Source: an uncultured Bacteroidales bacterium (GTDB taxonomy: Bacteria; Bacteroidota; Bacteroidia; Bacteroidales; FEN-979). From it: 64,000 nt of DNA. The stretch spans positions 19,127-83,126 of the forward strand of contig CAIMWF010000134.1 in assembly GCA_903845055.1 (NCBI GenBank), given 5' to 3'. A program made the translations under genes and the position numbers. The notes below the pieces were generated by a model. It was not told the origin of the DNA, made no database searches, and saw nothing but the letters and a program-made list of their open reading frames with translations. Below, in pieces: positions 1 to 44,697 of the stretch (position 1 is its first letter; every line of letters starts with the position of its first letter).

Positions 1-3000
1 CGGCTGAATGAACAGGCGCTGTCGGTGAAAATCGGCGGGAATTCCATCGCCGATTTAGCCGCCATGGAACTGGAAGAGCTTGTAACCCTCCTCGCCGGGA
101 ACGGGTTAGCCGGCAACGCCGGGGCTGTTTCCGGTCCCATCGTTACACAGGTTGAGAAGCAAGTCACCCTGCTGAAACGCCTCGGCCTGGGCTACCTAAC
201 CTGCGACCGCGAATCGACCACCCTCTCGGGCGGCGAATCGCAGCGTTTACGGCTTGCCACGCAGGCCGGCATTGGGCTGAGCGGCATGATCTGCATATTC
301 GACGAACCCTCCATCGGGCTGCACCCTCATGACATATCAAACCTGATCGGTATCCTGAAAGAGATCCGCGACCGGGGCAATACCGTGATCGTTGTGGAAC
401 ACGAAGAGGAATTTCTCCGTCATGCCGACTGGCTGATCGATATCGGGCCTGGTCCCGGCGTTCACGGGGGCGAAGTGCTGTTCAACGGATCGATGATTAC
501 GGCGACGCATCTTTCAGAAGTGGAGACCAGGAAAAGCCGCACGCTCTCTTTTTTCAAAGGTTTCGAAAAGATTGCCGTTCCGGCGCAACGTCGGCCGGGG
601 CATGGTTTTCTTTCCGTTTCAGGGGCCGCCGCCAACAACCTCCGGAACATTGACGTCAGCTTCAGGTTGCAGGCGCTGAATGTGGTCACCGGTGTTTCGG
701 GTGCCGGGAAATCGACCCTTACCGAACAGGTGCTGGGGGCCTTTTTAAGGAACCGGCTGCACGGCACCAACGAGGCAGTGGGAACCTTTCGGGCAATCAC
801 TGGCTGGGAGGGGATCGGCAAACTGATCTCCATCGACCAGTCGCCCATCGGCCGCACCCCGCGCAGCAACCCGGCCACCTATACCGGTTTGTCCGATCCC
901 ATCCGCGACCTTTTTACCAGCCTGCCGGAATCGGCAAGGCTGGGATTTGATAAAAGCCGGTTCTCCTTCAATACTCCCGGGGGACGGTGCGAATCCTGCC
1001 AGGGCGCCGGTTACCAGCTGGCCGGGATGCACTTCATGGGTAATGCAGAGGTACTTTGCGAAGCCTGTGAGGGCCGCCGGTTCGATGAACCAACCCTGTC
1101 GGTCACCTTCCGCAGCAAAAATATTTCTGAGGTTTTCGGGATGACGGTTTCGGAAGCCCTCCTGTTTTTCGCGGGCGAACACAAGATCCAGCGTTACCTC
1201 GAAACCCTCGAAAACCTGGGACTTGGCTATATCACCCTCGGGCAGCGTTCATCAACCCTGAGCGGGGGAGAGGCACAGCGGATAAAACTGGCCACTGAAC
1301 TTGCCCGGCCGCAGTCGGCGCATACGCTGTACATCATGGATGAGCCGACCACCGGACTGCACCACGCCGATGTGGGGATCCTCCTAAACGCGCTGAACCG
1401 CCTGGTCGGCCAGGGACATACGGTAATCCTCATCGAACACCATGCCGCGATCATCATGGCGGCCGACCATGTCATTGACCTGGGTCCAGGAAGCGGGCGC
1501 GATGGAGGATCACTTCTTTTTTCAGGTACGCCGGAGGAACTTCTTGCGTGCGAAGGATCGCTCACGGCAAAGGCCCTCCTTGAATATCGAATATCGAATG
1601 TCGAATATCGAATGTCGAAGGAAGAAATACCGGACCAGGACGCTACAATAAATCGTAAATCGTATATCGTAAATCGTAAATTATCGCTGAAAGGCGTTTC
1701 CACCCATAACCTGAAACACATCGATGTTGATATCCCGCACAACAAAATAACGGTCATCACCGGCGTATCTGGCAGCGGCAAATCGTCGCTGGCTTTCGAC
1801 ACCATCTTTGCCGAGGGACAGAGCCGCTTCCTCGAAAGTTATTCCCCCTATGTCCGCAGCCGGATCGGGGTCAAAGAAAAGGCTGAATTCGAAGAAATTA
1901 CCGGCCTTACGCCCGCCTTTGCGGTAAACCAGGGAGGCCTCGGCCATAACCCGCGCTCCACCGTCGGGACGATGACAGGCATCTATGATCATTACAGGCT
2001 GCTGTATTCGAGGATCGGGAAGCGGGCCCTGGAAAATGAATATCGGATAACGAATAACGAATATCCGATATCGAGTCTTTTTTCCTTCAACCACCGGCAT
2101 GGCGCATGCAGCTTGTGCGACGGACTTGGTTTCCGGACTGTCTGCGATCCGGCGAAACTGGTGACCGATCCTTCGAAACCACTGACCAGTGGCGCGCTGG
2201 ACGGCACGAAAACCGGGAAATTCTATGGTGACCCGTTCGGGCAGTACATGGCCACGCTCAGGTCGGCTGGCCTGAAATACGGGTTTGATTTTACACAACC
2301 CTGGTCGGAACTTTCCGACCTGGCAAAAACAGTTGCGATGCATGGCACCGGCGAAGAGGTGTACGAGGTGAACTGGCAGTTCAAACGGAACAACCGCACC
2401 GGTGAGCACCATTTTACCGGGTCCTGGAAGGGGCTTGTCAGCCTGGTCAACGAAGAGTATGACCGCAAACATGCCGATCACCGGGGCGATAGCATGATGA
2501 ACCTCATGAAAACGGTCCCCTGTGCGGCATGCGGGGGGAAGCGACTGAGGCCTGAAGCACTCGGGTATCTTATCGCAGGGAAAAACATCGCGGAACTTTC
2601 GGCCCTGCCCGTTGACCGGTCCATCGGTTTTTTCGTTTCACTCATCTCCGCTCCCGGGCAATCCGGCGATCGTGAGGTGGCCTCCCCGCTCGTCGGGGAG
2701 ATCCTCCGTAAACTTGAATTCATGGCCGGACTGGGTCTCCCTTACCTCGCCCCCGACCGGCTTTCGTCGACCCTTTCGGGGGGTGAGGCGCAGCGGATCA
2801 GGCTGGCAGGTCAGCTGGGATCGGGACTAACGGGGATCACCTACGTGCTGGATGAACCTACCATCGGGCTGCACCCGCGCGACACGGGCAACCTGATGAA
2901 ACTGATCAGGTCGCTGCAACAGTCGGGGAATACGGTGGTGATCGTCGAACACGACCGCGACGTGATCATGGCGGCCGATTACCTGGTCGATATGGGGCCA

Positions 3001-4080
3001 GGCGCCGGTAAAGCAGGCGGGAGGATCCTTGCGACAGGCTCCCCGCAGGAGGTCGTCGGTTCACCAGCCTCGGTCACCGGGCCTTACCTGGCCGCGATTC
3101 CCCCTACCACCGGAGGGTTTGCATTAAACCGGGAGGGAATTCCTGACCGCGTACTCAATCCGGGCATCTTGATCCGGGATGCATTTGCCAACAACCTGAA
3201 GGGTTTTGACCTGGAGATACCATCGGGAGGGATCATTGCCATTACCGGCGTTTCGGGAAGCGGGAAATCGACCCTGGTGAATGAGGTGATTGGCCGTTCG
3301 TGGGGAAACGGCACTGCAGCCGGATGTTCCTCCATCAGCGGGTTTGAAAATTTTCAGCGGATGGTCAGCGTCCGCCGGCGAACCGGGTTTTCTTCGCCGC
3401 TGGCCACGCCCGCCACCTTTACCGGCATTTTTGACCGGATACGTGAAATTTTTGCCGGTACCGATGAAGCACGTCATTCGGGATTCACCAGGAACCATTT
3501 TTCATACCTGGACAAAAGCGGGCAGTGCCAGGCCTGCCAGGGAGCCGGGCAGATATCGGTTTCCATGGATTTCCTTTCGGATGTAACCATGATCTGTGAA
3601 CAGTGTCACGGCATGCGATATGGCGACGATATCCTGCGCTGCAGGCACCATGACCACCATATCGGGGAGGTGCTTGCGATGACCGTGACGGAGGCTGCCC
3701 GGTTTTTTGAAGATCAGCGGAACTTGTCCGAACAGTTGAACATGATCGGTCAAACAGGTCTTGGTTACCTGCAACTGGGCCAGCCGCTTGATACCCTTTC
3801 GGGGGGAGAGGCCCAGCGGCTGGTGCTGGCGGCCGAACTGGTGAAGCCGGGGAAGGGACGGGCTTTGTATCTTCTTGAGGAACCATCCGCAGGGCTCCAT
3901 TTCAGGGATACCGGGTACCTGGTTGCCCTTTTTCACCGCCTGGCCGCCCTGGGACACACCCTGCTGGTCATAGAACATGACCATGACATTATCGCCCAGG
4001 CTGATCACATCATCGAACTTGGCCCCGAAGGGGGCGAACGGGGCGGCTACCTCACCGGTTCTGTTTCAAGGCCGGCATAA
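1..4080 (+). CDS. Tandem (duplicated) UvrA-like ABC ATPase; the 5' end lies outside the window
   Basis: The frame is open from nt 1. There are four ABC signature motifs (LSGGESQRLRLA, LSGGEAQRIKLA, LSGGEAQRIRLA, LSGGEAQRLVLA) and three Walker A loops (GVSGAGKST, GVSGSGKSS, GVSGSGKST). There are two UvrA-type C-terminal zinc modules (CESCQGAG..CEACEG and CQACQGAG..CEQCHG). A second complete UvrA N-terminus (LKGVSTHNLKHIDVDIPHNKITVITGVSGSGKSSLAFDTIFAEGQ) starts near nt 1685 with no intervening stop codon. Confidence 0.85.
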   Translation, partial: RLNEQALSVKIGGNSIADLAAMELEELVTLLAGNGLAGNAGAVSGPIVTQVEKQVTLLKRLGLGYLTCDRESTTLSGGESQRLRLATQAGIGLSGMICIFDEPSIGLHPHDISNLIGILKEIRDRGNTVIVVEHEEEFLRHADWLIDIGPGPGVHGGEVLFNGSMITATHLSEVETRKSRTLSFFKGFEKIAVPAQRRPGHGFLSVSGAAANNLRNIDVSFRLQALNVVTGVSGAGKSTLTEQVLGAFLRNRLHGTNEAVGTFRAITGWEGIGKLISIDQSPIGRTPRSNPATYTGLSDPIRDLFTSLPESARLGFDKSRFSFNTPGGRCESCQGAGYQLAGMHFMGNAEVLCEACEGRRFDEPTLSVTFRSKNISEVFGMTVSEALLFFAGEHKIQRYLETLENLGLGYITLGQRSSTLSGGEAQRIKLATELARPQSAHTLYIMDEPTTGLHHADVGILLNALNRLVGQGHTVILIEHHAAIIMAADHVIDLGPGSGRDGGSLLFSGTPEELLACEGSLTAKALLEYRISNVEYRMSKEEIPDQDATINRKSYIVNRKLSLKGVSTHNLKHIDVDIPHNKITVITGVSGSGKSSLAFDTIFAEGQSRFLESYSPYVRSRIGVKEKAEFEEITGLTPAFAVNQGGLGHNPRSTVGTMTGIYDHYRLLYSRIGKRALENEYRITNNEYPISSLFSFNHRHGACSLCDGLGFRTVCDPAKLVTDPSKPLTSGALDGTKTGKFYGDPFGQYMATLRSAGLKYGFDFTQPWSELSDLAKTVAMHGTGEEVYEVNWQFKRNNRTGEHHFTGSWKGLVSLVNEEYDRKHADHRGDSMMNLMKTVPCAACGGKRLRPEALGYLIAGKNIAELSALPVDRSIGFFVSLISAPGQSGDREVASPLVGEILRKLEFMAGLGLPYLAPDRLSSTLSGGEAQRIRLAGQLGSGLTGITYVLDEPTIGLHPRDTGNLMKLIRSLQQSGNTVVIVEHDRDVIMAADYLVDMGPGAGKAGGRILATGSPQEVVGSPASVTGPYLAAIPPTTGGFALNREGIPDRVLNPGILIRDAFANNLKGFDLEIPSGGIIAITGVSGSGKSTLVNEVIGRSWGNGTAAGCSSISGFENFQRMVSVRRRTGFSSPLATPATFTGIFDRIREIFAGTDEARHSGFTRNHFSYLDKSGQCQACQGAGQISVSMDFLSDVTMICEQCHGMRYGDDILRCRHHDHHIGEVLAMTVTEAARFFEDQRNLSEQLNMIGQTGLGYLQLGQPLDTLSGGEAQRLVLAAELVKPGKGRALYLLEEPSAGLHFRDTGYLVALFHRLAALGHTLLVIEHDHDIIAQADHIIELGPEGGERGGYLTGSVSRPA
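1582..1620 (+). repeat. 7-nt tandem array GAATRTC x5.5, in frame inside the UvrA-like ORF
   Basis: Read directly as gaatatc gaatatc gaatgtc gaatatc gaatgtc gaag. It translates as EYRISNVEYRMSK. Confidence 0.95.
1650..1684 (+). repeat. 7-nt tandem array AAATCGT x5, in frame inside the UvrA-like ORF
   Basis: Read directly as aaatcgt aaatcgt atatcgt aaatcgt aaattat. It belongs to the same family as the intergenic arrays at 6270-6304, 31801-31837 and 36851-36878 (reverse). Confidence 0.95.
2038..2075 (+). repeat. 7-nt tandem array (GAATATC family) with internal 9-bp inverted repeat, in frame inside UvrA unit 2
   Basis: Read directly as gaatatc ggataac gaataac gaatatc cgatatc gag. ATATCGGAT (2040-2048) is the reverse complement of ATCCGATAT (2063-2071). 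It translates as ENEYRITNNEYPIS. Confidence 0.9.
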
Positions 4081-4085
4081 AAAAA

Positions 4086-5474: not shown

Positions 5475-5504
5475 TTGAATTATAAAAATATTGACCCTTA
5501 GCAG

Positions 5505-5532
5505 GAATCGAAAATCGAAATTCATAAATATG
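5505..5532 (+). repeat. 7-nt tandem array ending in the scoA start codon
   Basis: Read directly as gaatcga aaatcga aattcat aaatATG. Confidence 0.8.
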
Positions 5533-6222
5533 AAAAAAGTTGTTGCAAATGCCCTGGAGGCAATCAGGGGGATCGAAAGCAACATGACCCTCATGCTGGG
5601 GGGGTTCGGTTTGTGCGGGATTCCCGAAAATTGCATATCCGCCCTTGCCGCGGCTGATATCACGGGGCTTACCTGCATATCCAACAACGCCGGCATCGAT
5701 GGTTTCGGCCTTGGCATGCTGCTGCGCCGTCACCAGATCAGGAAGATGATTTCCTCCTATGTGGGTGAAAACAAAGAATTTGAACGCCAGTTGCTGAGCG
5801 GCGAACTCGAGGTGGAACTGATTCCGCAGGGAACGCTTGCAGAACGGATCCGTGCGGGCGGTGCGGGCATTCCGGCCTTTTATGTCCCGGCAGGTTACGG
5901 CACCGAGGTGGCCGAGGGCAAACCGGTGCGTGAATTTGATGGCAAGATGTATCTCGAGGAACGCTGGCTGAAGGCCGATTTTGCCATTGTCAAGGCCTGG
6001 AAAGGGGATACGAACGGCAACCTGGTATACAAATTCACAGCCAACAATTTCAACCAGTCCATGGCCACTGCTGGAAAGATTACCATCGCCGAGGTCGAAG
6101 AGCTCGTACCTGCAGGCGCACTTGATCCGAACCACATTCATACGCCGGGAGTTTTCGTGCAACGCATCTTTCAGGGAAGCAACTATGAGAAGCGGATTGA
6201 GTTTACCACCACGAGAGAGTGA
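5530..6222 (+). CDS. scoA: 3-oxoacid (acetoacetate) CoA-transferase subunit A
   Basis: The protein starts MKKVVANALEAIRGIESNMTLMLGGFGLCGIPE and contains ELIPQGTLAERIRAGGAGIPAF. These match family I CoA-transferase A subunits. Start chosen at the ATG at 5530, which is internal to the listed ORF. Confidence 0.85.
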   Translation: MKKVVANALEAIRGIESNMTLMLGGFGLCGIPENCISALAAADITGLTCISNNAGIDGFGLGMLLRRHQIRKMISSYVGENKEFERQLLSGELEVELIPQGTLAERIRAGGAGIPAFYVPAGYGTEVAEGKPVREFDGKMYLEERWLKADFAIVKAWKGDTNGNLVYKFTANNFNQSMATAGKITIAEVEELVPAGALDPNHIHTPGVFVQRIFQGSNYEKRIEFTTTRE

Positions 6223-6310
6223 CGAGTGACAAATGACGAGTGACGAATGACAAGTGACGTATGACGCAGAAATCGTAAATCCAAAATCGTAAATCGTAAA
6301 TTTTAAAATG
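6217..6310 (+). repeat. Compound tandem array: GAGTGAC-family x7 then AAATCGT-family x5, filling the whole scoA-scoB spacer
   Basis: Read as gagtgac gagtgac aaatgac gagtgac gaatgac aagtgac gtatgac gcag aaatcgt aaatcca aaatcgt aaatcgt aaatttt aaaATG. The scoA TGA stop (6220-6222) lies inside the first unit. The scoB ATG (6308) abuts the last unit. Confidence 0.95.
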
Positions 6311-8167: not shown

Positions 8168-8226
8168 GTGAATGCAGAATAAGTGAATGCAGGAATGCAG
8201 GTAATGCAAACAATGCAAATACTGCA
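8168..8226 (+). repeat. Tandem array of AATGCA(G)-family units directly after the hmgA stop
   Basis: Read as gtgaatgcag aataa gtgaatgcag gaatgcag gtaatgca aacaatgca aatactgca. It is related to the arrays at 44588-44697. Confidence 0.85.
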
Positions 8227-8264
8227 AAAAAATATCAGGAATTCTATTAACAGCGTTTAATTTT

Positions 8265-8288
8265 CAAATTCTCAAATTCTCAACTTAT
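8265..8288 (+). repeat. 8-nt tandem array CAAATTCT x3 just upstream of hppD
   Basis: Read as caaattct caaattct caacttat. It ends 5 nt before the hppD ATG at 8294. Confidence 0.8.
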
Positions 8289-9433: not shown

Positions 9434-10711
9434 ATGGAGGTCGTCGAGCAATTGAAGTCATGGATTGAAGTAGGGAAGGAGAGCGATTTCCCCATTCAGA
9501 ATATCCCGTTTGGTATTTTTAAAACACCCGGGGGATCTGCAAGGGCCGCCACAAGGATCGGCGACACGGTGATCGATCTGAACGCCCTTGCACAGCAGGG
9601 GTTCCTGGATGGACTGGATATCGATCACGGGATTTTCAGGTATGAAACCCTGAATCCCTTCATGGCCCTGGGAAGACCGGTGTGCCGCAAGGTAAGACAA
9701 AGGATCGCTGAAATTTTCGAGGCGGGGAACCCCATCCTCCGGGATGATGCGGAGTGGCAGGCTGACATTCTTTACCCCCTCCATTCGGTGCAGATGCTGA
9801 TGCCTGTGCATGTAGGCGACTACACCGACTTTTATTCCAGCATCGAGCATGCAACCAATGTCGGGATCATGTTCCGCGATGCTGCCAATGCCCTCTTCCC
9901 GAACTGGAAACACCTCCCGGTCGGATACCATGGCAGGAGTTCTTCCATCGTTGTTTCGGGCACTGATATTTACCGGCCCAATGGTCAGACAAAGTCCGAC
10001 ACCTCCGAAACACCCGACTTCGGACCTTCGAAACAGGTTGACTTTGAACTGGAGATGGCCTTCATCACCTGTACAGCAACCGGGCTTGGGCAACCTGTTC
10101 CTGTTGAGACTGCCGAGGATCATATTTTCGGGATGGTGATCTTCAATGACCTCTCGGCCCGGGATATTCAAAAATGGGAATATGTTCCGCTGGGGCCGTT
10201 TCTCGCGAAAAATTTCGGCTCGGTCATCTCTCCCTGGGTGGTGACCCTCGATGCCATGGAGCCCTTCAGGATTGCCGGACCTCAGCAGGACCCTGTTGTG
10301 CTTCCCTACCTTCGCTCCGACAAACCGCACAATTTCGACGTTCAGCTGGAGGTCTTCATCAGGCCTGAAAACCAGCAGGAACAGCTCGTGTGCCGGTCAA
10401 ACTACCGTTATATGTACTGGAACCTCGCGCAGCAGCTGGCCCATCAAACCGTCAACGGCTGCAATATCAACGTAGGCGACATGTATGCCTCCGGAACCAT
10501 CAGTGGTCCAAACCCCGGTACCCAGGGTTCGATGCTCGAAATTGCCTGGAAAGGTACCCGTCCGGTAAGGATGGCCGACGGCAGTGAACGTAAGTTTATC
10601 AACGACCTCGACACGGTCATCATGCGTGGCTATTGTGTGAAGGAGAACCTGCGGATCGGGTTTGGGGAGGTCGTTACCAAAATCCTGCCCGCCATCCCTT
10701 ATCAATCTTAA
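9434..10711 (+). CDS. fahA: Fumarylacetoacetase
   Basis: Contains SWIEVGKESDFPIQNIPFGIF, HVGDYTDFYSS, GYHGRSSSIVVSG and FGMVIFNDLSARDIQ, which are FAH family motifs. First ATG taken at 9434; the listed ORF begins at a TTG at 9422. Confidence 0.85.
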   Translation: MEVVEQLKSWIEVGKESDFPIQNIPFGIFKTPGGSARAATRIGDTVIDLNALAQQGFLDGLDIDHGIFRYETLNPFMALGRPVCRKVRQRIAEIFEAGNPILRDDAEWQADILYPLHSVQMLMPVHVGDYTDFYSSIEHATNVGIMFRDAANALFPNWKHLPVGYHGRSSSIVVSGTDIYRPNGQTKSDTSETPDFGPSKQVDFELEMAFITCTATGLGQPVPVETAEDHIFGMVIFNDLSARDIQKWEYVPLGPFLAKNFGSVISPWVVTLDAMEPFRIAGPQQDPVVLPYLRSDKPHNFDVQLEVFIRPENQQEQLVCRSNYRYMYWNLAQQLAHQTVNGCNINVGDMYASGTISGPNPGTQGSMLEIAWKGTRPVRMADGSERKFINDLDTVIMRGYCVKENLRIGFGEVVTKILPAIPYQS

Positions 10712-10734
10712 TCTGAAATCTGAAATCTTAAATG
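10706..10734 (+). repeat. 7-nt tandem array TCTKAAA x4 spanning the fahA stop and the next start codon
   Basis: Read as tcttaa tctgaaa tctgaaa tcttaaa tg. The fahA TAA (10709-10711) and the ATG at 10732 are both formed by array units. Confidence 0.85.
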
Positions 10735-11361: not shown

Positions 11362-11370
11362 CAAGAGTAG

Positions 11371-11455
11371 TAAAGCCGCACCGCAGTGCGGCTCCATCAG
11401 TAAAGCCGCACCGCAGTGCGGCTCCATCAGTAAAGCCGCACCGCAGTGCGGCTCA
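11371..11455 (+). repeat. Three directly abutting copies of a 30-bp unit, each containing a 7-bp GC-rich hairpin
   Basis: The unit taaaGCCGCACcgcaGTGCGGCtccatcag occupies 11371-11400 and 11401-11430, with a truncated third copy at 11431-11455. It lies between the flavin reductase stop and the phhA ATG. Confidence 0.95.
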
Positions 11456-19764: not shown

Positions 19765-20350
19765 CCCCGTGAAAAGATAATATGTGCGGGCAAATGGCTT
19801 TTAAAGTGTCCCGGATTTCATGTGTACCAAAAAAAACTGCCGGGATGAACCTGTTGGTTCCCCCGGCAGCGCTTCTCTGAATTCGAATCATCCAACCAGG
19901 ATCATCGTACGCAGTTCATTTGCAAACGCAACAAACATTATAAAAATGGCTCGTTTCATGTCAAATTTGTTTTGGTTTTACCTCCGTTATCGCATAGCGG
20001 CTTTGCGTCCACTTTGTTTACTGGGGGTTAAAGAAGGAGGTAAAAATCTGTTTATAAGCGGGCTATTTTGGTCAGGCTCAGTTCCCGCGCTGTCAGCAAC
20101 TTAAAATGCACGGGCGTGTCATACTGAAAAGCAGACGCGTTTTTTTCAATCGGGTTGCCCGGAAGTTAAAAAATGAGGTAAAATATTTTTTAACATGCGC
20201 ATAACCCTGCGTTCGCTGCACCTTTTTGCGCGATCCCTGCGGGTCATTCCGGTGCTGATGTGGTTGTCTTCCCCGATTGTTGTAATTTTGGAAAGCTTTT
20301 CCGGTATGACAATTAACCGGGGAAGGAACCATATGACAGGGACCGGGAAG

Positions 20351-24807: not shown

Positions 24808-25095
24808 TTATGAAACCTTTTTCATGATCCTGGTCGAGGGTTCCCCGATGATGCCGATCTCTTTCCACAGGGCTTTCAACTCGGGGTTGTCGATGAAGGC
24901 GGCCGCGACTTCCGGGCTGGGTGCTTCGCTCACCACGGTAATGTAATTCTCATTTTCCAGGTCACGATAAACGCCCAGGGTCAGGATCCCTGCTTCATGG
25001 CGGATGTGGGCCCTGGCATAAAATGCCTCCTGCCAGGTTTCAAAGCGCTGAACTTCATGGGATACGATGATGATGGTTTCCATATTTTCGTTCAT
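24808..25095 (-). CDS. Small hypothetical protein (95 aa)
   Basis: Clean ORF with coding-like composition. No motif recognised. Confidence 0.45.
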   Translation of the reverse strand: MNENMETIIIVSHEVQRFETWQEAFYARAHIRHEAGILTLGVYRDLENENYITVVSEAPSPEVAAAFIDNPELKALWKEIGIIGEPSTRIMKKVS

Positions 25096-25160
25096 GATGT
25101 AATTTTAATTCAGATTAAATACAAAGATACGGAGAATATCTTTGCGGTCAAGAAATATTG

Positions 25161-25208
25161 GAGGTAGCGAGGTGGCGAGGTAGCGAGGTAGCGAAATGGC
25201 GAAAACAG
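25161..25208 (+). repeat. 8-nt tandem array GAGGTAGC x6
   Basis: Read as gaggtagc gaggtggc gaggtagc gaggtagc gaaatggc gaaaacag. The reverse-complement copy of this family is at 36879-36910. Confidence 0.9.
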
Positions 25209-25215: not shown

Positions 25216-26802
25216 CTATCGGGCGAGCAGGATCTTTTGTGTAAAAATTTTGTCGCCGGTTGTCAACCGCACATAATAGATCCCGGCGGGGCGGGTGCGG
25301 ATATCCACCCTGAGCTCATCACTGATGAGGCAGGATGTTTGGAAAACGGTCACTCCCTGGTTATTAAACACATCAACATGGACGGTTTCAGTCGGGGCGG
25401 GTTGACTGTGCATGATCCGGAACAGTCCGTCGGAGGGGTTGGGAACCACGCTGAATGCTGCCGCCCCCGGATTTTTGTCCTCCGTACTTCCCACAAATGA
25501 GATGCAGCCCTCGAAAGAAGTAAGGATGACCGGTATGACCGCCGGGTGCAGGCTGGCCGACGAGCCTCCCTGGGAAGCGGTAAGGGTAACCGGGTTCAGG
25601 ATGACAGAACAAGGACCTGAAGAGAACGAGTTAGGATTAATGCAATTTGACGTTACATTGGAGGAGTCGCTGTAGATCAGCCCTACCTGGGGATTGTTGG
25701 AGGAGGTTTTTGTGCCGATGATCGGGCCGTTGCCCAGGATCATGTATTTGCCCGGGGTATTTTCAGAAACATCCGAAGAAATCAGCAACATTTCCTGTCC
25801 CCATTTCAGTGTGCCTAGGGGGGCGGTAACGAGGAACTGGTCCATCCCGTAACCGCAAGAAACAAAAGCATACCCCCCGTCGGACGTTGCATGGAGTTTC
25901 GGCTTGAAAAACGTGGTCCCCGTGCCGCCGCCAACGTTGTATTCCTGTCCCCAGATAAAATTTCCCGCCAGGCTGATCTTCATCAGCACCATGCCGGGAT
26001 CGGGGGAGGAGGACAGTACCATGTATCCATCTGATTTTACAATAACATCCCAGCTTTCCGACGTGCTCGCGCCAAGCCATTGCTGGGTGGCCCATGAGAA
26101 GTCCCCGCCCGGTGTTAGTTTGACCAGGCAGGCTGCGCCCATGTGCGAAGTGTTCTCCAGGCTGCCGGTCACTGCATATCCTCCGTCGGTCGTTTGCTTT
26201 ACCGACGCCGCCCAGCCGCTGCTGTTCGAAGCCGCCAGTATCCTGGCCCAGGTGAGGCCGCCCGACGCATCAAGTTTGATCACCAGCATGGACTTGCCCG
26301 GGGAAACAGGTTGCACCAAGTAACCCCCGAGGATGAACCCGTGGTCGGAGGTCTGGCTGACAGAATAGAGATAAGCGTCGGTTCCGAATGCGATTTTTTT
26401 TGACCATAAGGTATCGCCTGACGCAGTAATCCTGGTGCAGGCAATATCCCGGATCCCGGTGGCCGTGTCGGGAGTCACCCCTGCCAGCAGGCAGGTTGAA
26501 TCGTGGGTGGTGATGACGCAGTTAAAATAGGAACCGTTAAAGCTGCTGATCTTTTTTCCCCACATAACAATGCCGGCAGGACTGACCTTCATCACCATGG
26601 CGCGGTTGTCCTTCTGCCCTGCCACCATGAAGTTCTGGTCAAAGGTTTTGGCGATGGAATAACCCTGAACCGATCCGGCAGGATCATAAAATACCTTTGA
26701 AAACGGCGATTGCTGGGCCGGCAGGGTGGTCGCCCAGCAGCTGAGGAGGATGCATCCGAGGTAAACAAAAACCTTAGTTTTCATATGTTTAATTTTAAGC
26801 AT
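25216..26802 (-). CDS. Secreted beta-propeller-repeat protein with a T9SS C-terminal sorting domain
   Basis: It has a signal peptide. TSDGGY/TTDGGYAVTG-type motifs recur. The C-terminus (VVPNPSDGLFRI...GIYYVRLTTGDKIFTQKILLAR) looks like a type A T9SS CTD. The start may instead be the ATG at 26784. Confidence 0.7.
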   Translation of the reverse strand: MLKIKHMKTKVFVYLGCILLSCWATTLPAQQSPFSKVFYDPAGSVQGYSIAKTFDQNFMVAGQKDNRAMVMKVSPAGIVMWGKKISSFNGSYFNCVITTHDSTCLLAGVTPDTATGIRDIACTRITASGDTLWSKKIAFGTDAYLYSVSQTSDHGFILGGYLVQPVSPGKSMLVIKLDASGGLTWARILAASNSSGWAASVKQTTDGGYAVTGSLENTSHMGAACLVKLTPGGDFSWATQQWLGASTSESWDVIVKSDGYMVLSSSPDPGMVLMKISLAGNFIWGQEYNVGGGTGTTFFKPKLHATSDGGYAFVSCGYGMDQFLVTAPLGTLKWGQEMLLISSDVSENTPGKYMILGNGPIIGTKTSSNNPQVGLIYSDSSNVTSNCINPNSFSSGPCSVILNPVTLTASQGGSSASLHPAVIPVILTSFEGCISFVGSTEDKNPGAAAFSVVPNPSDGLFRIMHSQPAPTETVHVDVFNNQGVTVFQTSCLISDELRVDIRTRPAGIYYVRLTTGDKIFTQKILLAR

Positions 26803-26821: not shown

Positions 26822-28978
26822 CTATTGAATGACCAGTTTGCGGGCTTCGGTCCCGTTTGAGGTCCGGATTTTCAGGATATAAATGCCGGCAGTGAGCGAG
26901 CCCACCGCGATTTCCATCCTCGCCGGATCGTGGAACCTGTTCTCAAGACATTGCTCTCCGCGGATATTGGCAATTGTTACCGTGACATCCCCGATGAGCT
27001 TTCTTTCGCTGGTGATGGTGACCTTGGTGGAGGCCGGGTTTGGGAACAAGGTGAAAGCCCGATTTTCAGCCAGGGGAGATTGAACGGAGACCAGTCCGCC
27101 GCCGTTCGTGGTGCGCAGGATGGCCCCGTCAACACCAACCGCAACGCCGGTACTGTCGCTGGCAAAACAGATGGAATAGATATTGGATGGAACGCCGCTG
27201 GCCTGCGCGGTCCAGGTCGCCCCGCCGTCGATGGTTTTGATGATGGTTCCCGCTGCAACACTGGAATTTGTCCCGGCAATATACCCGGTATGCGCATCTG
27301 TAAAGAAAACCGAATTCAGTTCAAGATGCATCGAAAAAGGGAGGTCGTTCCAGGTCGCCCCGCCGTCGGTGGTTTTGACTACGGCACCCAACCAGCTTTG
27401 CGCTTTATTGAATCCAACAGCATACCCAGTATTGGCGTCGGGGAAAAAGACGGAAGACAAACCCAGGGTGGATGAAATGGTTGTGGTGGTCCAGGTGGCC
27501 CCGCCATCGCTGGTTTTCAGGATATCACCCGAACCGTTGCCCATGGACCAGATGCTTCCACCCACCGCAACGCCGTTATGGACATCGGTAAAATACATTG
27601 CGTTGATTGCGTAACTCAGCCCGCTCACAACCTGGCTCCAGGTTGCACCGGCATTCGTGGTTTTCATGATATACCCGTTGGAACCCGACCCGTCGCACCC
27701 TGCCGCATACCCGGTACTTTCATCGGGAAAGAACAGGGAGGTGAAGCGGAAGGTTGTCCCGGTGTTGAGGGTTGTCCAGGTATTTCCGCCTGTATAGGTT
27801 TTCAGGATGATCCCGCTGTCGCCCGCCGCGTAACCGGTATTGGCATCGGTGAAAAAGACAGAAAAGAACATTTCGGTACTGGTGTTCGGGAGCGTCATCC
27901 AGGTGGCCCCGCCGTCGGTGGACTTGAGAAAGATGCTCGGGGGTTGCGGGTATTTATTGCCCACGGCATAGCCAACGTTTGCTGTCGGAAAACAAACGGA
28001 TGACAACGAATTGCAGGTAACGGCATCCGACAATGAAATCCAGTTGGCCCCGCCGTCGTAGGTTTTCAGCATGGTTCCGTAGAACCCCACTGCATACCCG
28101 GTGTTGCTGCTGGTAAAGAACAGGTCGTAGATTTTTTTATTGGTCCCCGCAGGTAACGTATTCCAGGTCACCCCACCATCGGTCGTTTTTTGCAGGTTCC
28201 CGTTGTTTCCCGACACATAGCCGGTGGAGGCACTGGTAAAAAAGACACTGTGGAGCGGACCTGCCGACGAACTCACCATGACGTTCCAGGTGGCTCCCCC
28301 GTCGGTGGTTTTGACAATTGACCCGTGATTGTTACCGGCGTCACTTCCAACCGCATACCCTGTGTTCGCGTCGGGAAAGCTGACCGACTCCAGCGCAAAA
28401 CTGGTGCCACTGATCATAAGATTCCAGGTTGCACCGCCATCGCTGGTTACCAGGATGGTACCCCCGTCTCCCACCACGATGCCGTGGCTGGCATCGATGA
28501 AACGGATGACATACAGGCTCCAGTAGTTGCCGCTCGGCTGCGAGGCCCAGGATATTCCACCATCGACGGTTTTGAAGATGAAATAGGCCCCCACTGCAAA
28601 CCCGGTATTCGCATCGAGGAAGAATACCGACGAAAGGTCATGACCCGTCGTGTTTGGCAAAGCGGTCCAGGTGGCGCCCGCATCGGTGGTTTTCAGGATG
28701 GAAGGTCCGTCACCCACGGCATAGCCGGTGCTGGCATTGGGGAAATGCATTCCCGACAGGTAGGAGGTCGAGCCGGTCGGGAGGATGCTCCAGGTGGCCC
28801 CCCCATTAACGGTCTTGATGATGGTGCCGTTATTTCCCATGGCATAACCTGTGAGGGCATCCATAAACTGGACGCCGAAAAGGTGGTTGCCCTGCGGCAG
28901 CGGGTTCTGCCATGTCCACTGGGCAAAAGAACACAGCAAGCTCATCGCGAAAATGACGGAAATACTTAACTTTTTCAT
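26822..28978 (-). CDS. BNR/Ycf48-like multi-propeller protein with a T9SS C-terminal sorting domain
   Basis: 718 aa with a signal peptide. It has at least 12 copies of the T(T/S)DGGATW BNR motif. The CTD is FTLFPNPASTKVTI...GIYILKIRTSNGTEARKLVIQ. Confidence 0.8.
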   Translation of the reverse strand: MKKLSISVIFAMSLLCSFAQWTWQNPLPQGNHLFGVQFMDALTGYAMGNNGTIIKTVNGGATWSILPTGSTSYLSGMHFPNASTGYAVGDGPSILKTTDAGATWTALPNTTGHDLSSVFFLDANTGFAVGAYFIFKTVDGGISWASQPSGNYWSLYVIRFIDASHGIVVGDGGTILVTSDGGATWNLMISGTSFALESVSFPDANTGYAVGSDAGNNHGSIVKTTDGGATWNVMVSSSAGPLHSVFFTSASTGYVSGNNGNLQKTTDGGVTWNTLPAGTNKKIYDLFFTSSNTGYAVGFYGTMLKTYDGGANWISLSDAVTCNSLSSVCFPTANVGYAVGNKYPQPPSIFLKSTDGGATWMTLPNTSTEMFFSVFFTDANTGYAAGDSGIILKTYTGGNTWTTLNTGTTFRFTSLFFPDESTGYAAGCDGSGSNGYIMKTTNAGATWSQVVSGLSYAINAMYFTDVHNGVAVGGSIWSMGNGSGDILKTSDGGATWTTTTISSTLGLSSVFFPDANTGYAVGFNKAQSWLGAVVKTTDGGATWNDLPFSMHLELNSVFFTDAHTGYIAGTNSSVAAGTIIKTIDGGATWTAQASGVPSNIYSICFASDSTGVAVGVDGAILRTTNGGGLVSVQSPLAENRAFTLFPNPASTKVTITSERKLIGDVTVTIANIRGEQCLENRFHDPARMEIAVGSLTAGIYILKIRTSNGTEARKLVIQ

Positions 28979-30504: not shown

Positions 30505-31740
30505 ATGATGACACCCGGAAAAAAAATCTTCCATGCAATTCTGAGAACAACAGGTTTCATCCTGGCGGTTCTCCTGGTTTTGGAACTGGTCCTTTATTTC
30601 CTGGTACCCGTCTATGATTTTCCTGCCCCCCGGCCTTTTTCAGGTGAAAAACTCTACAATCCATACCAGGGGATGGACAGCACATGCTGGAGGAAAGCCA
30701 ATTTTCACTTTCACACCCGCGCCTGGGGCGGGCTGACGAGTGGCCGGCACAACTCCAACGAGGACTTTTACCGTACCTATAAAGCCATGGGCTATGACGC
30801 CCCCCAGATTTCAAACTATATGTCGATTGATGAATCGTTCAGGGATTCAGCATTTTACGTTCCCGGGTACGAGCATGGTTTTGGCATCAGGAAAAAGCAC
30901 CAGATACTGATCGGTTCGCACCGTGTGCTGTGGCTCGACTATTCCCTCGTCCAGAACCTGAACCACAAGCAGCATATGCTCAACCTGCTCAGACCCGATA
31001 ACGACGTGGTGGGGATCGCGCATCCCGACTGGGAAGGCGGGTACAGCCTGGCCGACATGCAAATGCTCTCGAATTACGACCTCGTGGAGGCGCTCGACCA
31101 TAACTGGCGGTCGCTCCCGCAGTGGGATGCCGCCCTGTCGGCCGGCCGGCCGGTCTATATCCTGGCCGACGACGACGCGCACAATATAAGCGACCCATAC
31201 GAGATTCAGCGGATGTGCACCTTCATCAACAGCCCGGGAGTTCATGGCGCAGACCTTGTCAAAGGGCTGAAATCGGGAATGGCCTACGGTGCCGACATTT
31301 ACATGGGAACCAATGAGACCTTCGCTGAAAAAGCAGTTCATGCAAAATCGATGCCTGTCGTCAACTCGGTGAGGGTCGCAGGGGATACCCTGTGGGTTGC
31401 CGTTAGCGGAAAGCCGCTGAAAATGACCTTTATCGGCCAGGACGGTGAACTGAAAAAGATTGTGAGGCTTTCAAATCGTGCATGGTACAAATTCAAGGCC
31501 GAAGATACCTATATTCGTACCGAGATCGTATTTTTAAAATACCATAAATTTCCGGCCGTAGGGCAGGGGACTGTTTTTTACCTGAACCCCGTATTCAGGT
31601 ACGACGGCCAGCCTCCTTCAAATCCTTTGCTTGCCGAGATCGACTGGCCAAGAACCTGGATTCAACGGGTCCTCGGACTCGGTTCGCTGGCGACATTGAT
31701 CCTGGCAGCAGGGTTTATCAGATGGAAGAAAAAATTATAA
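30505..31740 (+). CDS. Membrane-anchored hypothetical protein, possibly a PHP-type metal-dependent phosphoesterase
   Basis: 411 aa with TM helices at both termini. His/Asp-rich motifs NFHFHTRAW, GYEHGFG, GIAHPDW and ADDDAHN are spaced like PHP motifs. The function call is tentative. Confidence 0.4.
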   Translation: MMTPGKKIFHAILRTTGFILAVLLVLELVLYFLVPVYDFPAPRPFSGEKLYNPYQGMDSTCWRKANFHFHTRAWGGLTSGRHNSNEDFYRTYKAMGYDAPQISNYMSIDESFRDSAFYVPGYEHGFGIRKKHQILIGSHRVLWLDYSLVQNLNHKQHMLNLLRPDNDVVGIAHPDWEGGYSLADMQMLSNYDLVEALDHNWRSLPQWDAALSAGRPVYILADDDAHNISDPYEIQRMCTFINSPGVHGADLVKGLKSGMAYGADIYMGTNETFAEKAVHAKSMPVVNSVRVAGDTLWVAVSGKPLKMTFIGQDGELKKIVRLSNRAWYKFKAEDTYIRTEIVFLKYHKFPAVGQGTVFYLNPVFRYDGQPPSNPLLAEIDWPRTWIQRVLGLGSLATLILAAGFIRWKKKL

Positions 31741-31766
31741 ATTAAAAATTAAAAAATTACGCCATT

Positions 31767-31840
31767 CATTCGTCACTCGTCACTCGTCACTCGTCATTAT
31801 AAATCGTAAATCCAAAATCGTAAATCGTATATCCTAAATG
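31767..31840 (+). repeat. Compound tandem array: CACTCGT x4 (reverse complement of the GAGTGAC family) then AAATCGT family, ending in a start codon
   Basis: Read as cattcgt cactcgt cactcgt cactcgt cattata aatcgta aatccaa aatcgta aatcgta tatccta aATG. The stretch 31801-31829 is identical to 6270-6298. Confidence 0.95.
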
Positions 31841-35035: not shown

Positions 35036-35078
35036 AATCCTCACATCCCCAAATCTCCACATCCCCAAATCCTCTCAT
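35036..35078 (+). repeat. 16-nt tandem repeat (AATCYTCACATCCCCA) x2.7
   Basis: Read directly. It fills the spacer between the fumC stop (35075-35077) and the start of the BNR protein gene (35016). Confidence 0.85.
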
Positions 35079-36845: not shown

Positions 36846-36850
36846 ATCAG

Positions 36851-36917
36851 ATTTACAATTTACGATTTACGATTTCGCTACCTCGCTACCTCGCTACCTC
36901 GCTACCTCGCTATTTAT
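36851..36917 (+). repeat. Compound tandem array: ATTTACG x4 (reverse of AAATCGT) then TACCTCGC x4 (reverse of GAGGTAGC), filling the prfB-arsC spacer
   Basis: Read as atttaca atttacg atttacg atttcgc tacctcgc tacctcgc tacctcgc tacctcgc tatttat. On the coding (minus) strand the units read GAGGTAGC and AAATCGT. Confidence 0.95.
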
Positions 36918-38010
36918 TTAACTGTTTCCCCCAAACTCCATCAGGTAAGCCTTGATGAATTCGGTGAGGTCGCCGTCGAGCACAGCCTGGGTATCGGAGG
37001 TTTCGAACCCGGTGCGGAGGTCCTTCACCATTTTGTATGGATGAAGCACATAGCTTCGTATCTGGCTGCCCCATTCTATCTTTTTCTTGCCGCTTTCAAT
37101 CACCGTGATCTTTTCGCGTTGCTTGCGCAGTTCGATCTCGTAGAGCTGTGATTTGAGCAGTTTCAGCGCTTTTTCACGGTTCTGCCCCTGCGATCGGGTT
37201 TCCTGGCATTCGATCACGATCCCCGAAGGTTCATGTTTCAGCCTGACGGCCGTTTCCACCTTGTTGACGTTCTGCCCGCCCGGGCCGCTGCTGCGGAACG
37301 TATCCCAGCTGATGTCGGCGGGGTTGATCTCGATCACGATGTCGTCGTTGATGATGGGGTAGGCGTATACTGAGGCAAAGGAGGTATGTCTTTTATGGTT
37401 TGAATCGAAGGGTGAAAGCCTGACCAGCCGGTGAACGCCATTTTCTCCCTTGAGATAACCATAAGCGTAATCCCCGTCAAATTCAAGGGTTACCGATTTG
37501 ATCCCGGCAACGTCGCCTTCCTGGTAATCGACCTCGGAGATTTTGTATTTACTCCGTTCACCGTAGCGCAGGTACATGCGCATGAGCATCTGCGCCCAGT
37601 CCTGCGATTCGGTACCCCCGGCTCCCGAGTTGATCTGCACGATGGCGCCCAGTTTGTCTTCCTCGCCGCTCAGCATGTTGCGGAACTCAAGGTCTTCAAT
37701 ATGGCGGAGGGTTCCCTGGTAATGGGCCTCCACCTCTTCCTCGGTTGCGTCGCCCTGGATAAAAAAATCCCACATGACCTTCAGGTCATCATTGCCGGCA
37801 ACAGCGGTTAAAAATGCATCGGTCCAGAGTTTTTTATCACGGATGGCCCGGAGCGCCTGCTCTGCAGCCTTGGGGTTGTTCCAGAAGCCGGGGGCCTGCG
37901 ACAGTTGTTCCTCTTCAGCTATCTGGGAAAGTTTCTTATCGATGTCAAAGGTACCTCCTCAAGACATCGAGTCTTGTCTGAAGGTCTTTCAGTTGTTCCT
38001 GTGCGATCAT
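36918..38010 (-). CDS. prfB: Peptide chain release factor 2, expressed through a programmed +1 frameshift
   Basis: ORF1 (38010-37948) encodes [21 protein letters not shown] followed by TGA. The +1 frame from GAC (37946) continues [15 protein letters not shown]...FWNNP and runs into the listed 285-aa ORF, which carries [15 protein letters not shown] (GGQ). The total is 363 aa. Confidence 0.92.
37944..37959 (-). other. RF2 autoregulatory +1 frameshift site AGGAGG-TAC-CTT-TGA-C
   Basis: The minus strand reads AGGAGGTACCTTTGAC. The internal SD-like element, 3-nt spacer and slippery CUU UGA C are arranged as in the E. coli prfB site. Confidence 0.9.
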
Positions 38011-39431: not shown

Positions 39432-39508
39432 TTGTTTTGATTTTGTTTGTCGCATGCAAAGATAATACTAATTTACAATCAATCTAAATAGTGTGAAAAA
39501 AGAGCAAA

Positions 39509-43366: not shown

Positions 43367-43414
43367 AGGATTTTCAATGTAAAAGCAGAGATTATTTTAT
43401 TTGATAAAAAGCCT

Positions 43415-43422
43415 TACTTTTG
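43415..43422 (+). promoter_or_regulatory. Candidate -7 promoter element TACTTTTG
   Basis: The motif lies 31 nt upstream of the ATG at 43454. This is a motif match only. Confidence 0.35.
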
Positions 43423-43453
43423 TGCAAAACTAATCAAACAAGGAGACCATTCC

Positions 43454-44581: not shown

Positions 44582-44587
44582 TTCAAA

Positions 44588-44627
44588 CAATGCGTTAATG
44601 CAGGCAATGCAAGCAATGCAGGTAATG
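44588..44627 (+). repeat. 9-nt tandem array TAATGCAGR-family (left arm of an inverted pair)
   Basis: Read as caatgcg ttaatgcag gcaatgcaa gcaatgcag gtaatg. Confidence 0.85.
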
Positions 44628-44651
44628 TTTGTCCCACAAACTCCATCAGTG

Positions 44652-44697
44652 TCTGCATTATTTACATTATCTGCATTATCTGCATTACTTTCATTGT
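44652..44697 (+). repeat. 9-nt tandem array TCTGCATTA x4-5 (right arm, reverse complement of the left arm family)
   Basis: Read as tctgcatta tttacatta tctgcatta tctgcatta ctttcattg. It ends 4 nt before the ATG at 44702. Confidence 0.9.

Follow-up and report, generated by a model that had tools for sequence, protein, structure and literature searches.

Tandem heptamer arrays in the operon spacers of a freshwater Bacteroidota lineage: STRR-like repeats probably shaped by slippage, copying between sites and tolerance

What are the short tandem arrays that crowd the spacers between genes of an uncultured Bacteroidales bacterium, and how did they come to lie there? The question was raised by a 64,000-base stretch of DNA (GenBank assembly GCA_903845055.1, contig CAIMWF010000134.1, positions 19,127 to 83,126; hereafter the window), in which short units are repeated head to tail at many sites, mostly just ahead of start codons. 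The host is marked as a member of Bacteroidota by C-terminal sorting domains of the type IX secretion system (T9SS) and by SprA, and the presence of contigs matching the window in lake metagenomes indicates a freshwater bacterium. Reports of heptamer repeats go back 35 years and come from cyanobacteria, xanthomonads, Beggiatoaceae and a few Bacteroidetes; neither an origin nor a function is agreed on. The arrays described here are an addition to these known, unexplained repeats, being similar to sequences of the STRR type (short tandemly repeated repetitive), and are not a new element class. They are probably slippage-driven, STRR-like long simple sequence repeats (SSRs), copied between sites and filtered by tolerance, in an uncultured freshwater Bacteroidota lineage.

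Using Tandem Repeats Finder (TRF) at a score of at least 40, we detected 16 non-overlapping arrays in the window, whereas 50 dinucleotide-preserving shuffles of the same DNA gave a mean of 1.26 arrays and a maximum of 4. The 13-mer AAATCGTAAATCG, with one mismatch at most allowed, occurred nine times against 0.13 expected. The units have periods of 7, 8 or 9 nucleotides (nt) and are repeated in 3-7 copies, as in STRR-like repeats and heptameric long SSRs, and several unit families return at separate sites, AAATCGT at four, AATGCAG at three, GAGTGAC and GAGGTAGC at two each. On a gene map made from curated open reading frames (ORFs) and Pfam matches, 14 of the 16 arrays are intergenic, in 3,922 bases that make up 6.1% of the window (binomial p ~1e-15); this strong bias toward non-coding DNA is also that of STRR-like repeats. 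The remaining two, together with a weaker third, lie inside a UvrA-like ORF. All 14 intergenic arrays of this score sit in co-directional spacers. For spacers of at least 20 nt, 9 of 26 co-directional ones contained an array, while the 10 that are divergent or convergent had none (Fisher p = 0.033), the p-value rising to 0.14 once a weak array at 5505-5529, in a divergent spacer, is counted. Some spacers are filled from stop to start: the TGA of scoA lies inside the first GAGTGAC unit, a TCTGAAA array extends over the fahA stop and the next start, and an AAATCGT array runs into the ATG of a GT39 gene. A preliminary description of this DNA, made from its letters, had claimed non-random placement, recurring unit families and concentration in same-strand spacers up to the start codon. 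TRF, the shuffles and the placement counts bore all three out, and TRF together with direct reading of the sequence recovered every listed array within a few bases.

The arrays are real and non-random, and are not assembly artefacts. Short-read assemblers can mis-assemble low-complexity repeats, and an error of assembly or sequencing would be a natural suspicion. However, assemblies made independently from different samples (JGI, ENA, Logan) contained identical arrays, and the array-flanking proteins were found on many of their contigs. The comparison with independent assemblies, proposed in the preliminary description along with that against shuffled DNA, gave base-identical spacers: scoA|scoB is 100% identical in four other assemblies and the tlpA-like spacer in three (JGI, ENA). 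Related arrays were also present at orthologous sites in dozens of metagenomes, and arrays inside the UvrA-like ORF keep it open in six lineages. An artefact is thus hardly credible.

Alleles within the population indicate how the arrays change. With flanking proteins identical, assembly L240 carries exactly one extra 8-nt CAAATTCT unit (+8 nt) upstream of hppD, while assembly L248 carries one GAGGTAGC unit fewer (-8 nt) upstream of arsC, where the AAATCGT array is also shorter by 5 nt at its 3' end. L128 and L129, which sample one and the same related population, have an array of equal length with the unit variants in a different order. Since alleles differ by whole units, which is its signature, slipped-strand mispairing is indicated, in agreement with the slippage-prone spacers that had been proposed from the letters. 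Copy number and sequence vary among strains and related species, as they do in STRR-like repeats.

Slippage changes an array in place, and the distribution of units points to copying as well. Identical units were shared by 16% of 181 within-genome pairs of arrays at non-orthologous sites, as opposed to 3% of 1,658 between-genome pairs, each genome holding 5-8 unit families. For instance, AAAAGCG is present at four sites of relative L134, and both CGTCATT of L133 and TGGTCAT/CCAATTA of L132 occur in the scoA|scoB spacer and again in the linker of the UvrA-like ORF. Two AAATCGT blocks of the window, 6270-6307 and 31801-31838, agree at 92% over 38 nt and have the double-substituted unit AAATCCA in common, while 25161-25197 and 36872-36908 are 97% complementary over 37 nt, across the junction from GAGGTAGC to AAAT (GCGAAAT). 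The composite [GAGGTAGC]n[AAATCGT]m, with its GAGGTGGC variant, is also found at a non-orthologous, non-syntenic site of L124. Because multi-unit blocks are shared by non-orthologous sites, we conclude that arrays have been copied between sites. The concatenation of families in different combinations and orientations, noted in the preliminary description, is seen as composites and inverted copies in both the window and its relatives.

The copying could in principle be the work of an actively dispersed element, with dedicated templated-insertion or transposition-like machinery and possibly horizontal movement. Repertoires that are specific to a genome and common to its non-orthologous sites would fit such an element, as would the multi-unit blocks with identical variant units at distant sites and the occurrence of identical heptamer arrays in many phyla and in viral contigs. 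Horizontal transfer has been raised for TAACTGA repeats (MacGregor 2015, PMC4679880). However, neither conserved flanks nor terminal inverted repeats nor target-site duplications were found around the array copies of the window, and no transposase or reverse-transcriptase gene was present among the window genes scanned with Pfam. Local seeding is possible, as the TCTGAAA array takes in the fahA stop together with the start of the flavin-reductase gene (flr), and no association with mobile elements was observed for comparable repeats (Rehm et al. 2015, PMC4692102). A dedicated element of this kind is therefore quite improbable.

Orthologous spacers in relatives provide a further view of the same process. 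By a ScoB scan of metagenome contigs, 80 syntenic loci were obtained, with protein identities of 96-76%. The orthologous spacers of 13 relatives also hold arrays, in which unit, copy number, orientation and presence vary, the spacers ranging from 18 to 459 nt. At ScoB identities of at least 88% (88-96%), the scoA|scoB spacer nearly always holds heptamer arrays with lineage-dependent units: CGAATAT/TGAATAC in L124, GTCACTT plus AAATCGT in L127, (GTCACTT)6 in L128, (GTCACTC)10 plus AAATCGT in L130, (ACATCGT)7 in L131, (TGGTAAT)9 in L132, GTCATTC in L133, and GATGCAG plus (TAATTCG/TAACTCG)n over 195 nt in L135; L125 has no array there. The site of GAGTGAC in the window is occupied at the matching position in L127-L130 by its reverse complement (GTCACTC/T). 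In relatives of 82% ScoB identity or less, this spacer is mostly short (2-46 nt) and without arrays. The hmgA|hppD spacer, of 50-459 nt among relatives, usually contains an array with an AATGCA core, and the core unit of the window array (8168-8228) is also present in the orthologous spacer of L125 (about 20 TRF units), L127 and L128. The hppD|fahA spacer, of 18-200 nt, has no array in the window, CGAATAT in L125 and L128, and CTGCATC in L135; the scoB|hmgA and fahA|flr spacers are likewise variable. Such a comparison of orthologous spacers had been suggested in the preliminary description, and units, lengths, orientation and presence were all found to differ.

The largest expansions observed were both in the hmgA|hppD spacer, within what should be a single operon. 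In L128 (4117-4567) this spacer measures 459 nt and carries about 18 AATGCAAAC units and, after them, about 31 CACATTAA/CACATCAG units; in L125 (11901-12058) it measures 291 nt and holds about 20 GGAATGCA units.

The arrays are concentrated in the clade of the window, with 35 period-7 arrays in 245 kb; 565 kb from more distant relatives had 6. Within the 245 kb, the share of spacers with an array is 49% for co-directional, 29% for convergent and 13% for divergent ones (p = 4e-4), and arrays occupy 23%, 6% and 3% of the respective spacer bases; these counts were made with crude gene calls at partly orthologous sites, and the co-directional class is inflated by arrays of the UvrA-like ORF where that ORF was split. 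Enrichment between co-directional ORFs and depletion between divergent ones, as described by Rehm et al. (2015), are thus seen in both window and clade. In L124, an intact AAATCGT array precedes scoA at the position where the window has the decayed remnant 5505-5529, even though its upstream neighbour is a different gene. The association of arrays is accordingly with the start codon and not with co-directionality as such.

Arrays inside coding sequence show most directly what is tolerated. The UvrA-like ORF (25-4080, continuing upstream of the window; 1351 amino acids visible, 1647 in a JGI gene call) is a fusion of two ABC-ATPase/UvrA-like modules by Pfam. All three of its arrays are on the plus strand. 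The first, GAATATC/GAATGTC repeated 5.4 times at 1582-1619, is translated as the linker between the two modules (...LTAKALLEYRISNVEYRMSKEE..., by TRF and translation); the second, AAATCGT repeated 4.7 times at 1649-1684 (TRF and sequence), completes the junction at 1582-1684. The third, a GAATAAC-type array of 3.7 copies at 2038-2076, is translated as a 13-residue linker within the second module, at what we take to be the position of the inserted domain of canonical UvrA. The only AAATCGT unit with a potential in-frame TAA reads TAT (1663-1665), which leaves the frame open. Heptamer arrays of other units (CCAATGA...TCATTGG, ACGAATG...CATTCGT, GTCACGC) also occupy both positions in five orthologues; they measure 102-186 nt at the module junction and 21-165 nt, with units such as GTCACGC, at the internal linker. 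In all six lineages examined the flanking modules share one reading frame that no stop interrupts, and in four orthologues (L127, L130, L132, L133) the junction consists of an array, a unique core and an inverted array. This ORF shows arrays appearing, as it would seem, wherever they are tolerated, with selection then presumably removing incompatible versions. Since the same spacer varies in unit, orientation, length and presence, and since arrays sit inside an ORF, a fixed sequence-specific role is argued against.

The arrays do follow an orientation rule. For this analysis start-proximal was defined as within 25 nt of a start codon, and arrays were masked for the orientation counts; gene calls are approximate. 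When clade arrays were read in the mRNA sense, C exceeded G in 19 of 23 start-proximal arrays (mean G 12%), while G exceeded C in 15 of 24 stop-proximal ones (mean G 25%; start versus stop, Mann-Whitney p = 3e-4). This is the polarity of the Rehm et al. repeats, in which the G-rich strand is sense at stops and antisense at starts, with one exception in the window at 25161-25208. Units that are G-rich, similar to the Shine-Dalgarno (SD) sequence, or contain ATG or stop triplets adjoin the upstream stop codon. One and the same family can take opposite orientations by position: GATGCAG follows a stop and CTGCATC precedes a start in L135, and an inverted pair in the window repeats this arrangement, with AATGCAGGC after the stop and CTGCATTAT before the start. 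Within its 64 kb the window has gene blocks on the plus and on the minus strand, and in each the polarity goes with the orientation of the genes; it is therefore tied to transcription or translation, and a replication-strand cause was rejected. Such a filter on orientation and composition is consistent with constraints on translation initiation. We also considered a three-frame stop insulator, in which TAA- or TGA-containing heptamers close all frames every three units, and rejected it as not general: sense-strand stops are present in AAATCGT, GAGTGAC, TCTGAAA and TAGCGAGG, and absent from GTCACTC, CAAATTCT, CTGCATTAT and GCTACCTC.

RNA structure was examined as a possible basis for the arrays. 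Inverted pairs might act as stem-loops in stabilisation, processing, pausing or termination of transcripts, and G-rich arrays as G-quadruplexes (G4). The inverted pair at 44588-44699 does fold, with imperfect pairing, into a long hairpin (-34.1 kcal/mol, z = -3.25), and a T-rich tract comes after it; in the preliminary description its arms had been correctly found and listed as two separate arrays. The order array, loop, inverted array recurs in L135, L140 and L160, at the UvrA junctions, and in Acidobacteriota and Verrucomicrobiota. Hairpins of the hupS-hupL STRR (PMC2670836) and G4 formation by GGGNATC (PMC4692102) have been described, and GGGGATT is present in L135. On the other hand, most window arrays are solo, and solo arrays fold worse than shuffled controls (z from +1.3 to +1.5). 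A simple scan for intrinsic terminators gave no match at the window arrays, G-runs are contained in just one of them (35037-35072), and hairpin-forming pairs lie within a translated ORF as well. Structural roles for the inverted pairs and the G-rich arrays are accordingly judged very unlikely.

The probable account of slippage, copying and tolerance may then be put together as follows. Slipped-strand mispairing during replication would create and resize arrays, as the whole-unit alleles suggest, and template switching would give inverted copies, as judged from inversions in situ. Ectopic recombination or gene conversion would spread arrays between sites, to judge from the shared blocks. Arrays persist where frame-breaking insertions or deletions of 7 or 8 nt are harmless, namely in intra-operon spacers and at two linker positions of the double UvrA-like protein. 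Their survival would be set by selection on initiation regions and against disturbance of promoters in divergent spacers, a presumed cause for the observed pattern of placement. Start codons would allow only orientations that are G-poor, unstructured and usable as initiation regions. Start-proximal arrays would then serve as ribosome-binding leaders for which any compatible sequence would do, that is, as tolerated filler and not as dedicated regulatory modules.

Several observations weigh against this account. The comparative statistics use crude ORF calls, and orthologous sites are not independent. Two of the four arrays checked were invariant across assemblies, and slippage is thus not fast. 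The coding DNA of the clade is 71-80% identical at 88-96% protein identity, so that synonymous sites are near saturation. Unit families are nevertheless still recognisable in orthologous spacers: an AATGCA core in hmgA|hppD, GTCACTY and CGTAAAT in scoA|scoB. Given synonymous divergence near saturation, such persistence would not be predicted from purely neutral drift of the array consensus. Furthermore, an exact search for AAATCGT repeated 2.9 times, with one genome per species, gave at least 119 loci in many phyla, where about one would be expected by chance for one 20-mer; AAATCGT arrays were also found in 34 viral contigs. Of 15 composites among the matches listed, 11 have the partner array, usually G-rich, on the 5' side of AAATCGT. 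This layout across phyla suggests a sequence preference, mutational or selective, that lies outside the model. That some preference exists follows from the persistence of unit families at orthologous spacers and from the recurrence of the AAATCGT unit and layout across phyla; a conserved RNA or DNA reader, a polymerase bias and horizontal spread are candidates for its source.

The AAATCGT loci listed include megabase contigs of Acidobacteriota, Chloroflexota and Verrucomicrobiota in addition to many Bacteroidota. No obvious Bacillota were seen among the matches listed, possibly as an effect of sampling. The loci among these matches are rich in period-7 arrays (357 of 883), and with respect to co-directional genes their AAATCGT arrays are balanced between 47 sense and 41 antisense. 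Their positions differ by orientation: among the matches listed and by crude gene calls, sense arrays lie at a median of 29 nt from the downstream start, whereas antisense arrays lie at a median of 8 nt from the upstream stop and 110 nt from the start (p = 2e-4). Individual layouts include (GCGTGAG)5-(TAAATCG)6 on an Anaerolineales contig, AAATCGT-loop-ACGATTT hairpins on a Pyrinomonadaceae chromosome, and ATGATTT-loop-AAATCGT followed by ATG on a Verrucomicrobiaceae contig. The preliminary description had connected the arrays with the SD-less translation of Bacteroidota; with AAATCGT arrays of like layout in Acidobacteriota, Chloroflexota, Verrucomicrobiota and other phyla, they are specific neither to that phylum nor to that mode of translation.

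These findings bear on the possibility that the arrays are functional leader modules. According to this proposal, AAATCGT-type arrays, A/U-rich and G-poor, would be platforms for a conserved binder of single-stranded RNA with oligonucleotide-binding (OB) folds (ribosomal protein S1 or Csp-like proteins), one heptamer per fold, serving in ribosome recruitment, standby or translational coupling, while the upstream G-rich, SD-like arrays would hold terminating ribosomes. The arrays are unstructured and make up the whole initiation region of the housekeeping genes scoB, hppD, arsC and GT39. AAATCGT is placed in sense near starts and in antisense at stops across phyla, among the matches listed. The order [G-rich][AAATCGT]-ATG is found in Chloroflexota, array pairs are present in Acidobacteriota and Verrucomicrobiota, and unit families persist in spite of the saturated synonymous divergence. 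Binding of S1, Csp or CsrA has been proposed for related heptamers, with one heptamer per protein for CspB (PMC4679880). However, L125 does without an array at scoA|scoB, as the window does at hppD|fahA, and other relatives use unrelated units at these sites. Arrays have anywhere from about 2 to about 31 units, the 5-8 families of a genome stand in place of one cognate site, and most genes have no array. The same units also occur in antisense, beside stops and inside an ORF. Leader or coupling functions and protein binding, as put forward in the preliminary description, are candidate functions that had already been suggested for STRR and TAACTGA repeats. We regard dedicated leader modules as a possible, though unlikely, explanation.

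A broader form of this idea is that of a cross-phylum spacer 'grammar', aware of orientation, with G-rich units after the stop and AAATCGT-type units up to the start. It might be read by a conserved factor such as S1 or Csp as modular leaders, or written by a copy-and-paste process. This reading draws on three observations, namely that families persist at orthologous spacers, that they recur across Bacteroidota, Acidobacteriota, Chloroflexota, Verrucomicrobiota and viral contigs, and that they are copied within genomes; we consider it distinctly unlikely. Slippage, copying and tolerance remain our preferred account.

The individual arrays of the window are arranged as follows. On the plus strand, a decayed AATCGAA array of two to three units (2.1 copies) lies at 5505-5529, directly upstream of the scoA start in a divergent spacer. 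GAGTGAC, repeated seven times with the G-rich strand in sense, extends over 6217-6266 and includes the scoA stop TGA (6220-6222); AAATCGT (4.6 copies) follows at 6270-6304 and ends 6 nt before the scoB ATG. The hmgA|hppD spacer has an AATGCAG-type array of 8- and 9-nt units beginning at the hmgA stop (8168-8228), and three G-free CAAATTCT units (8259-8288) ending about 10 nt before the hppD ATG. TCTGAAA (3.4 copies, 10706-10734) covers the fahA stop, the entire 20-nt spacer and the start of the flavin-reductase gene. Three arrays stand in a row before the GT39/PMT-family gene: AAAAATT (3.7 copies, 31730-31755), which overlaps the end of ORF 30505-31740, GTCACTC (4.4 copies, 31766-31796), which is C-rich in sense and the reverse complement of the GAGTGAC family, and AAATCGT (5.7 copies, 31800-31839), which runs into the ATG. 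The inverted pair consists of AATGCAGGC (3.4 copies, 44588-44627) as the 5' arm, just after the stop of the first tlpA-like gene, and CTGCATTAT (5 copies, 44652-44699) as the 3' arm, ending at the ATG of the second tlpA-like gene.

On the minus strand, the array at 25161-25208 contains 4.2 copies of GAGGTAGC as written on the plus strand, or GCTACCTC in the sense of the flanking genes, and abuts the stop of 25216-26802. A G-rich 16-mer, GGATTTGGGGATGTGA, with an 8-nt sub-period (2.2 copies, 35037-35072), lies between the fumC stop and the start of a BNR gene. In the prfB|arsC spacer, a perfect array of TAGCGAGG in sense (GAGGTAGC; 4.8 copies, 36875-36912) begins 5 nt after the prfB stop, and AAATCGT in sense (3.7 copies, 36850-36875) ends about 5 nt before the arsC ATG. 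With respect to the preliminary description, all arrays listed in it are present, 5505-5529 being marginal, while those at 31730-31755 and 11369-11454 had been missed. Its statement that each intergenic array is upstream of a start is correct for most, with the exception of 25161-25208, which abuts the upstream stop, lies 65 nt from the next start and is antisense to the genes. Its gene names agreed with Pfam, apart from 'PHP-like' for 30505-31740, which has no Pfam match. Rfam at gathering thresholds gave no match in the whole window, and a scan of the window for tRNA and tmRNA found none.

Other repeats and hairpins were observed in the same DNA. Between the flavin-reductase and aromatic-amino-acid-hydroxylase-like genes, 11369-11454 is a perfect 30-nt repeat of 2.9 copies, each unit holding a G+C-rich hairpin, GCCGCACcgcaGTGCGGC; the folded RNA has -51.3 kcal/mol (z = -7.9). 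This repeat is a class apart from the heptamers and is nearer in form to a repetitive extragenic palindromic (REP) element or a terminator. In relatives, the same spacer contains single unrelated hairpins, for example a 42-nt palindrome in L128. The small ORF 24808-25095 is separated from the GAGGTAGC array by a segment (25096-25160) with a perfect 10-bp hairpin, CAAAGATAT...ATATCTTTG, the 3' arm of which includes TAtcTTTG, presumably similar to the -7 promoter motif of Bacteroidota. The ORF may thus carry its own predicted promoter in this segment. An inverted match of 45 nt (20395-20439 versus 37252-37296, 91% complementary) joins prfB to ORF 20195-20758, apparently its paralogue in the release-factor family, at what looks like the GGQ-motif region of both genes. 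Paralogues seldom agree so closely at the DNA level, and gene conversion may be the cause. The prfB product (36918-37775 and upstream) is 285 amino acids as called here and 336-344 in some other assemblies, probably owing to the known programmed +1 frameshift of release factor 2 or to a difference in the called start. The gene at 26822-28978 encodes a T9SS-sorted BNR/YCF48-like protein with 13 diverged repeat copies (27208-28829), about 120-147 nt apart.

The lineage provides a natural experiment, in which one operon carries different arrays in the same spacers of a dozen lineages, alleles of one unit segregate in a population, and arrays are kept in frame within a protein. As the orientation rule holds in a phylum that does not use SD pairing, the rule cannot depend on SD pairing alone. 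The array sequence is not fixed per gene, and the influence that favours AAATCGT and similar units is at work in more than one phylum. Should these repeats have a conserved reader or writer, it would count as a general feature of how bacterial operons are built; otherwise the arrays would still be useful as hypervariable strain markers. In that case annotators would be warned of ORFs and starts called through repeats. With crude calls, ORFs stay open along a stop-free antisense strand and starts are called after stop-rich arrays.

How do these arrays compare with known systems? The preliminary description stated that no described element class matches them, and this did not hold, as heptameric STRR and long-SSR repeats of like placement have been described (PMC2670836, PMC4692102, PMC4679880). 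Some better-known classes were rejected. The arrays share with REP elements, bacterial interspersed mosaic elements (BIMEs) and miniature inverted-repeat transposable elements (MITEs) a dispersed, intergenic and often intra-operon location, and the inverted pairs and the 11369-11454 repeat resemble REP clusters in form. However, REP/BIME was excluded because heptamer units are non-palindromic and solo arrays fold worse than shuffles, only the 30-nt repeat and the inverted pair being hairpins, and MITE because the copies have no conserved ends, target duplications or fixed element length. CRISPR was excluded because the units are contiguous and of 7-9 nt, as opposed to 24-48-nt repeats with unique spacers of similar length. 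Polymorphism in unit number by slippage is a feature of contingency-locus SSRs as well; a phase-variable contingency locus was rejected on the grounds of 7-9-nt units (not 1-6), neighbours in central metabolism (not surface or restriction-modification genes), location between cistrons (not in promoters or 5' coding regions) and maintenance of the in-ORF frame in six lineages.

The STRR sequences of heterocystous cyanobacteria are dispersed tandem repeats of 7 bp (Mazel et al. 1990, by the account in PMC2670836). Between hupS and hupL inverted sets of them can form hairpins, and transcript stability or translational coupling was proposed as a function of STRR (PMC2670836). Like them, the arrays of the window have 7-nt units, few families at many sites, and a mostly non-coding location between co-transcribed genes and sometimes in tolerant parts of genes. 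An STRR reportedly lies inside the RNase P RNA gene (Vioque 1997). Unlike STRR, they reside in Bacteroidota, have AAATCGT, GAGTGAC, GAGGTAGC and AATGCAG as dominant units, include 8- and 9-nt units, and are translated as linkers. With a host that is not a cyanobacterium and with units different from STRR1-3, strict STRR was rejected, and the arrays are 'STRR-like' only. TTGGTCA of relative L132 (9250) is, as we take it, the STRR2 unit, and L135 has GGGGATT/AATCCCC arrays (3834, 8726, 12600), the Nostoc-type G4 unit of Rehm et al. (2015); the same heptamers therefore recur in unrelated phyla.

Closest in arrangement are the GGGAATC and GGGGA(C/T)T heptamers of Xanthomonas and Nostoc, which are located between aligned ORFs and are fewer between divergent ORFs or in coding sequence, with the G-rich strand coding within 50 bp of a stop or non-coding immediately before an ORF (Rehm et al. 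2015, PMC4692102). They lie between the same gene pairs in related species with extensive variation in length and sequence, have housekeeping neighbours and no link to mobile elements, and slippage was raised as a hypothesis for them as well (PMC4692102). Our arrays agree in co-directional placement, in polarity by strand and position, and in variation between relatives. They differ in that most units have 0-1 G and are not G4-capable, G-runs being confined in the window to the array at 35037-35072, in that four units are not preferred, and in that the dominant start-proximal family is A/T-rich. Among the long SSRs of Mrazek et al. (2007), with units of 5-11 nt, heptanucleotides are the commonest, in sporadic lineages, and polymerase slippage was proposed, according to the summary in PMC4679880; by the same summary, units not multiples of three are excluded from coding sequence. 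This is a statistical category without a mechanism, an orientation rule or unit sharing between sites.

TAACTGA repeats are located as direct repeats just upstream of starts in Beggiatoaceae, Cyanobacteria and five Bacteroidetes (MacGregor 2015, PMC4679880). The forward unit gives stops in three frames, reverse copies lie in the periphery of ORFs, relatives may have no repeats in the corresponding spacer, occurrence over the phylogeny is patchy, and Gramella and Aequorivita carry further heptamer repeats (PMC4679880). S1, Csp or CsrA were proposed as readers, CspB binding one heptamer per protein (PMC4679880). The arrays of the present lineage likewise stand at start codons, and AAATCGT (by TAA) and GAGTGAC (by TGA) also give stops in three frames. 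TAACTGA is one dominant unit per genome in 2-6 copies, whereas here several families share a genome in composite and inverted arrangements, and the distribution of AAATCGT, over many phyla, is much wider than that of TAACTGA.

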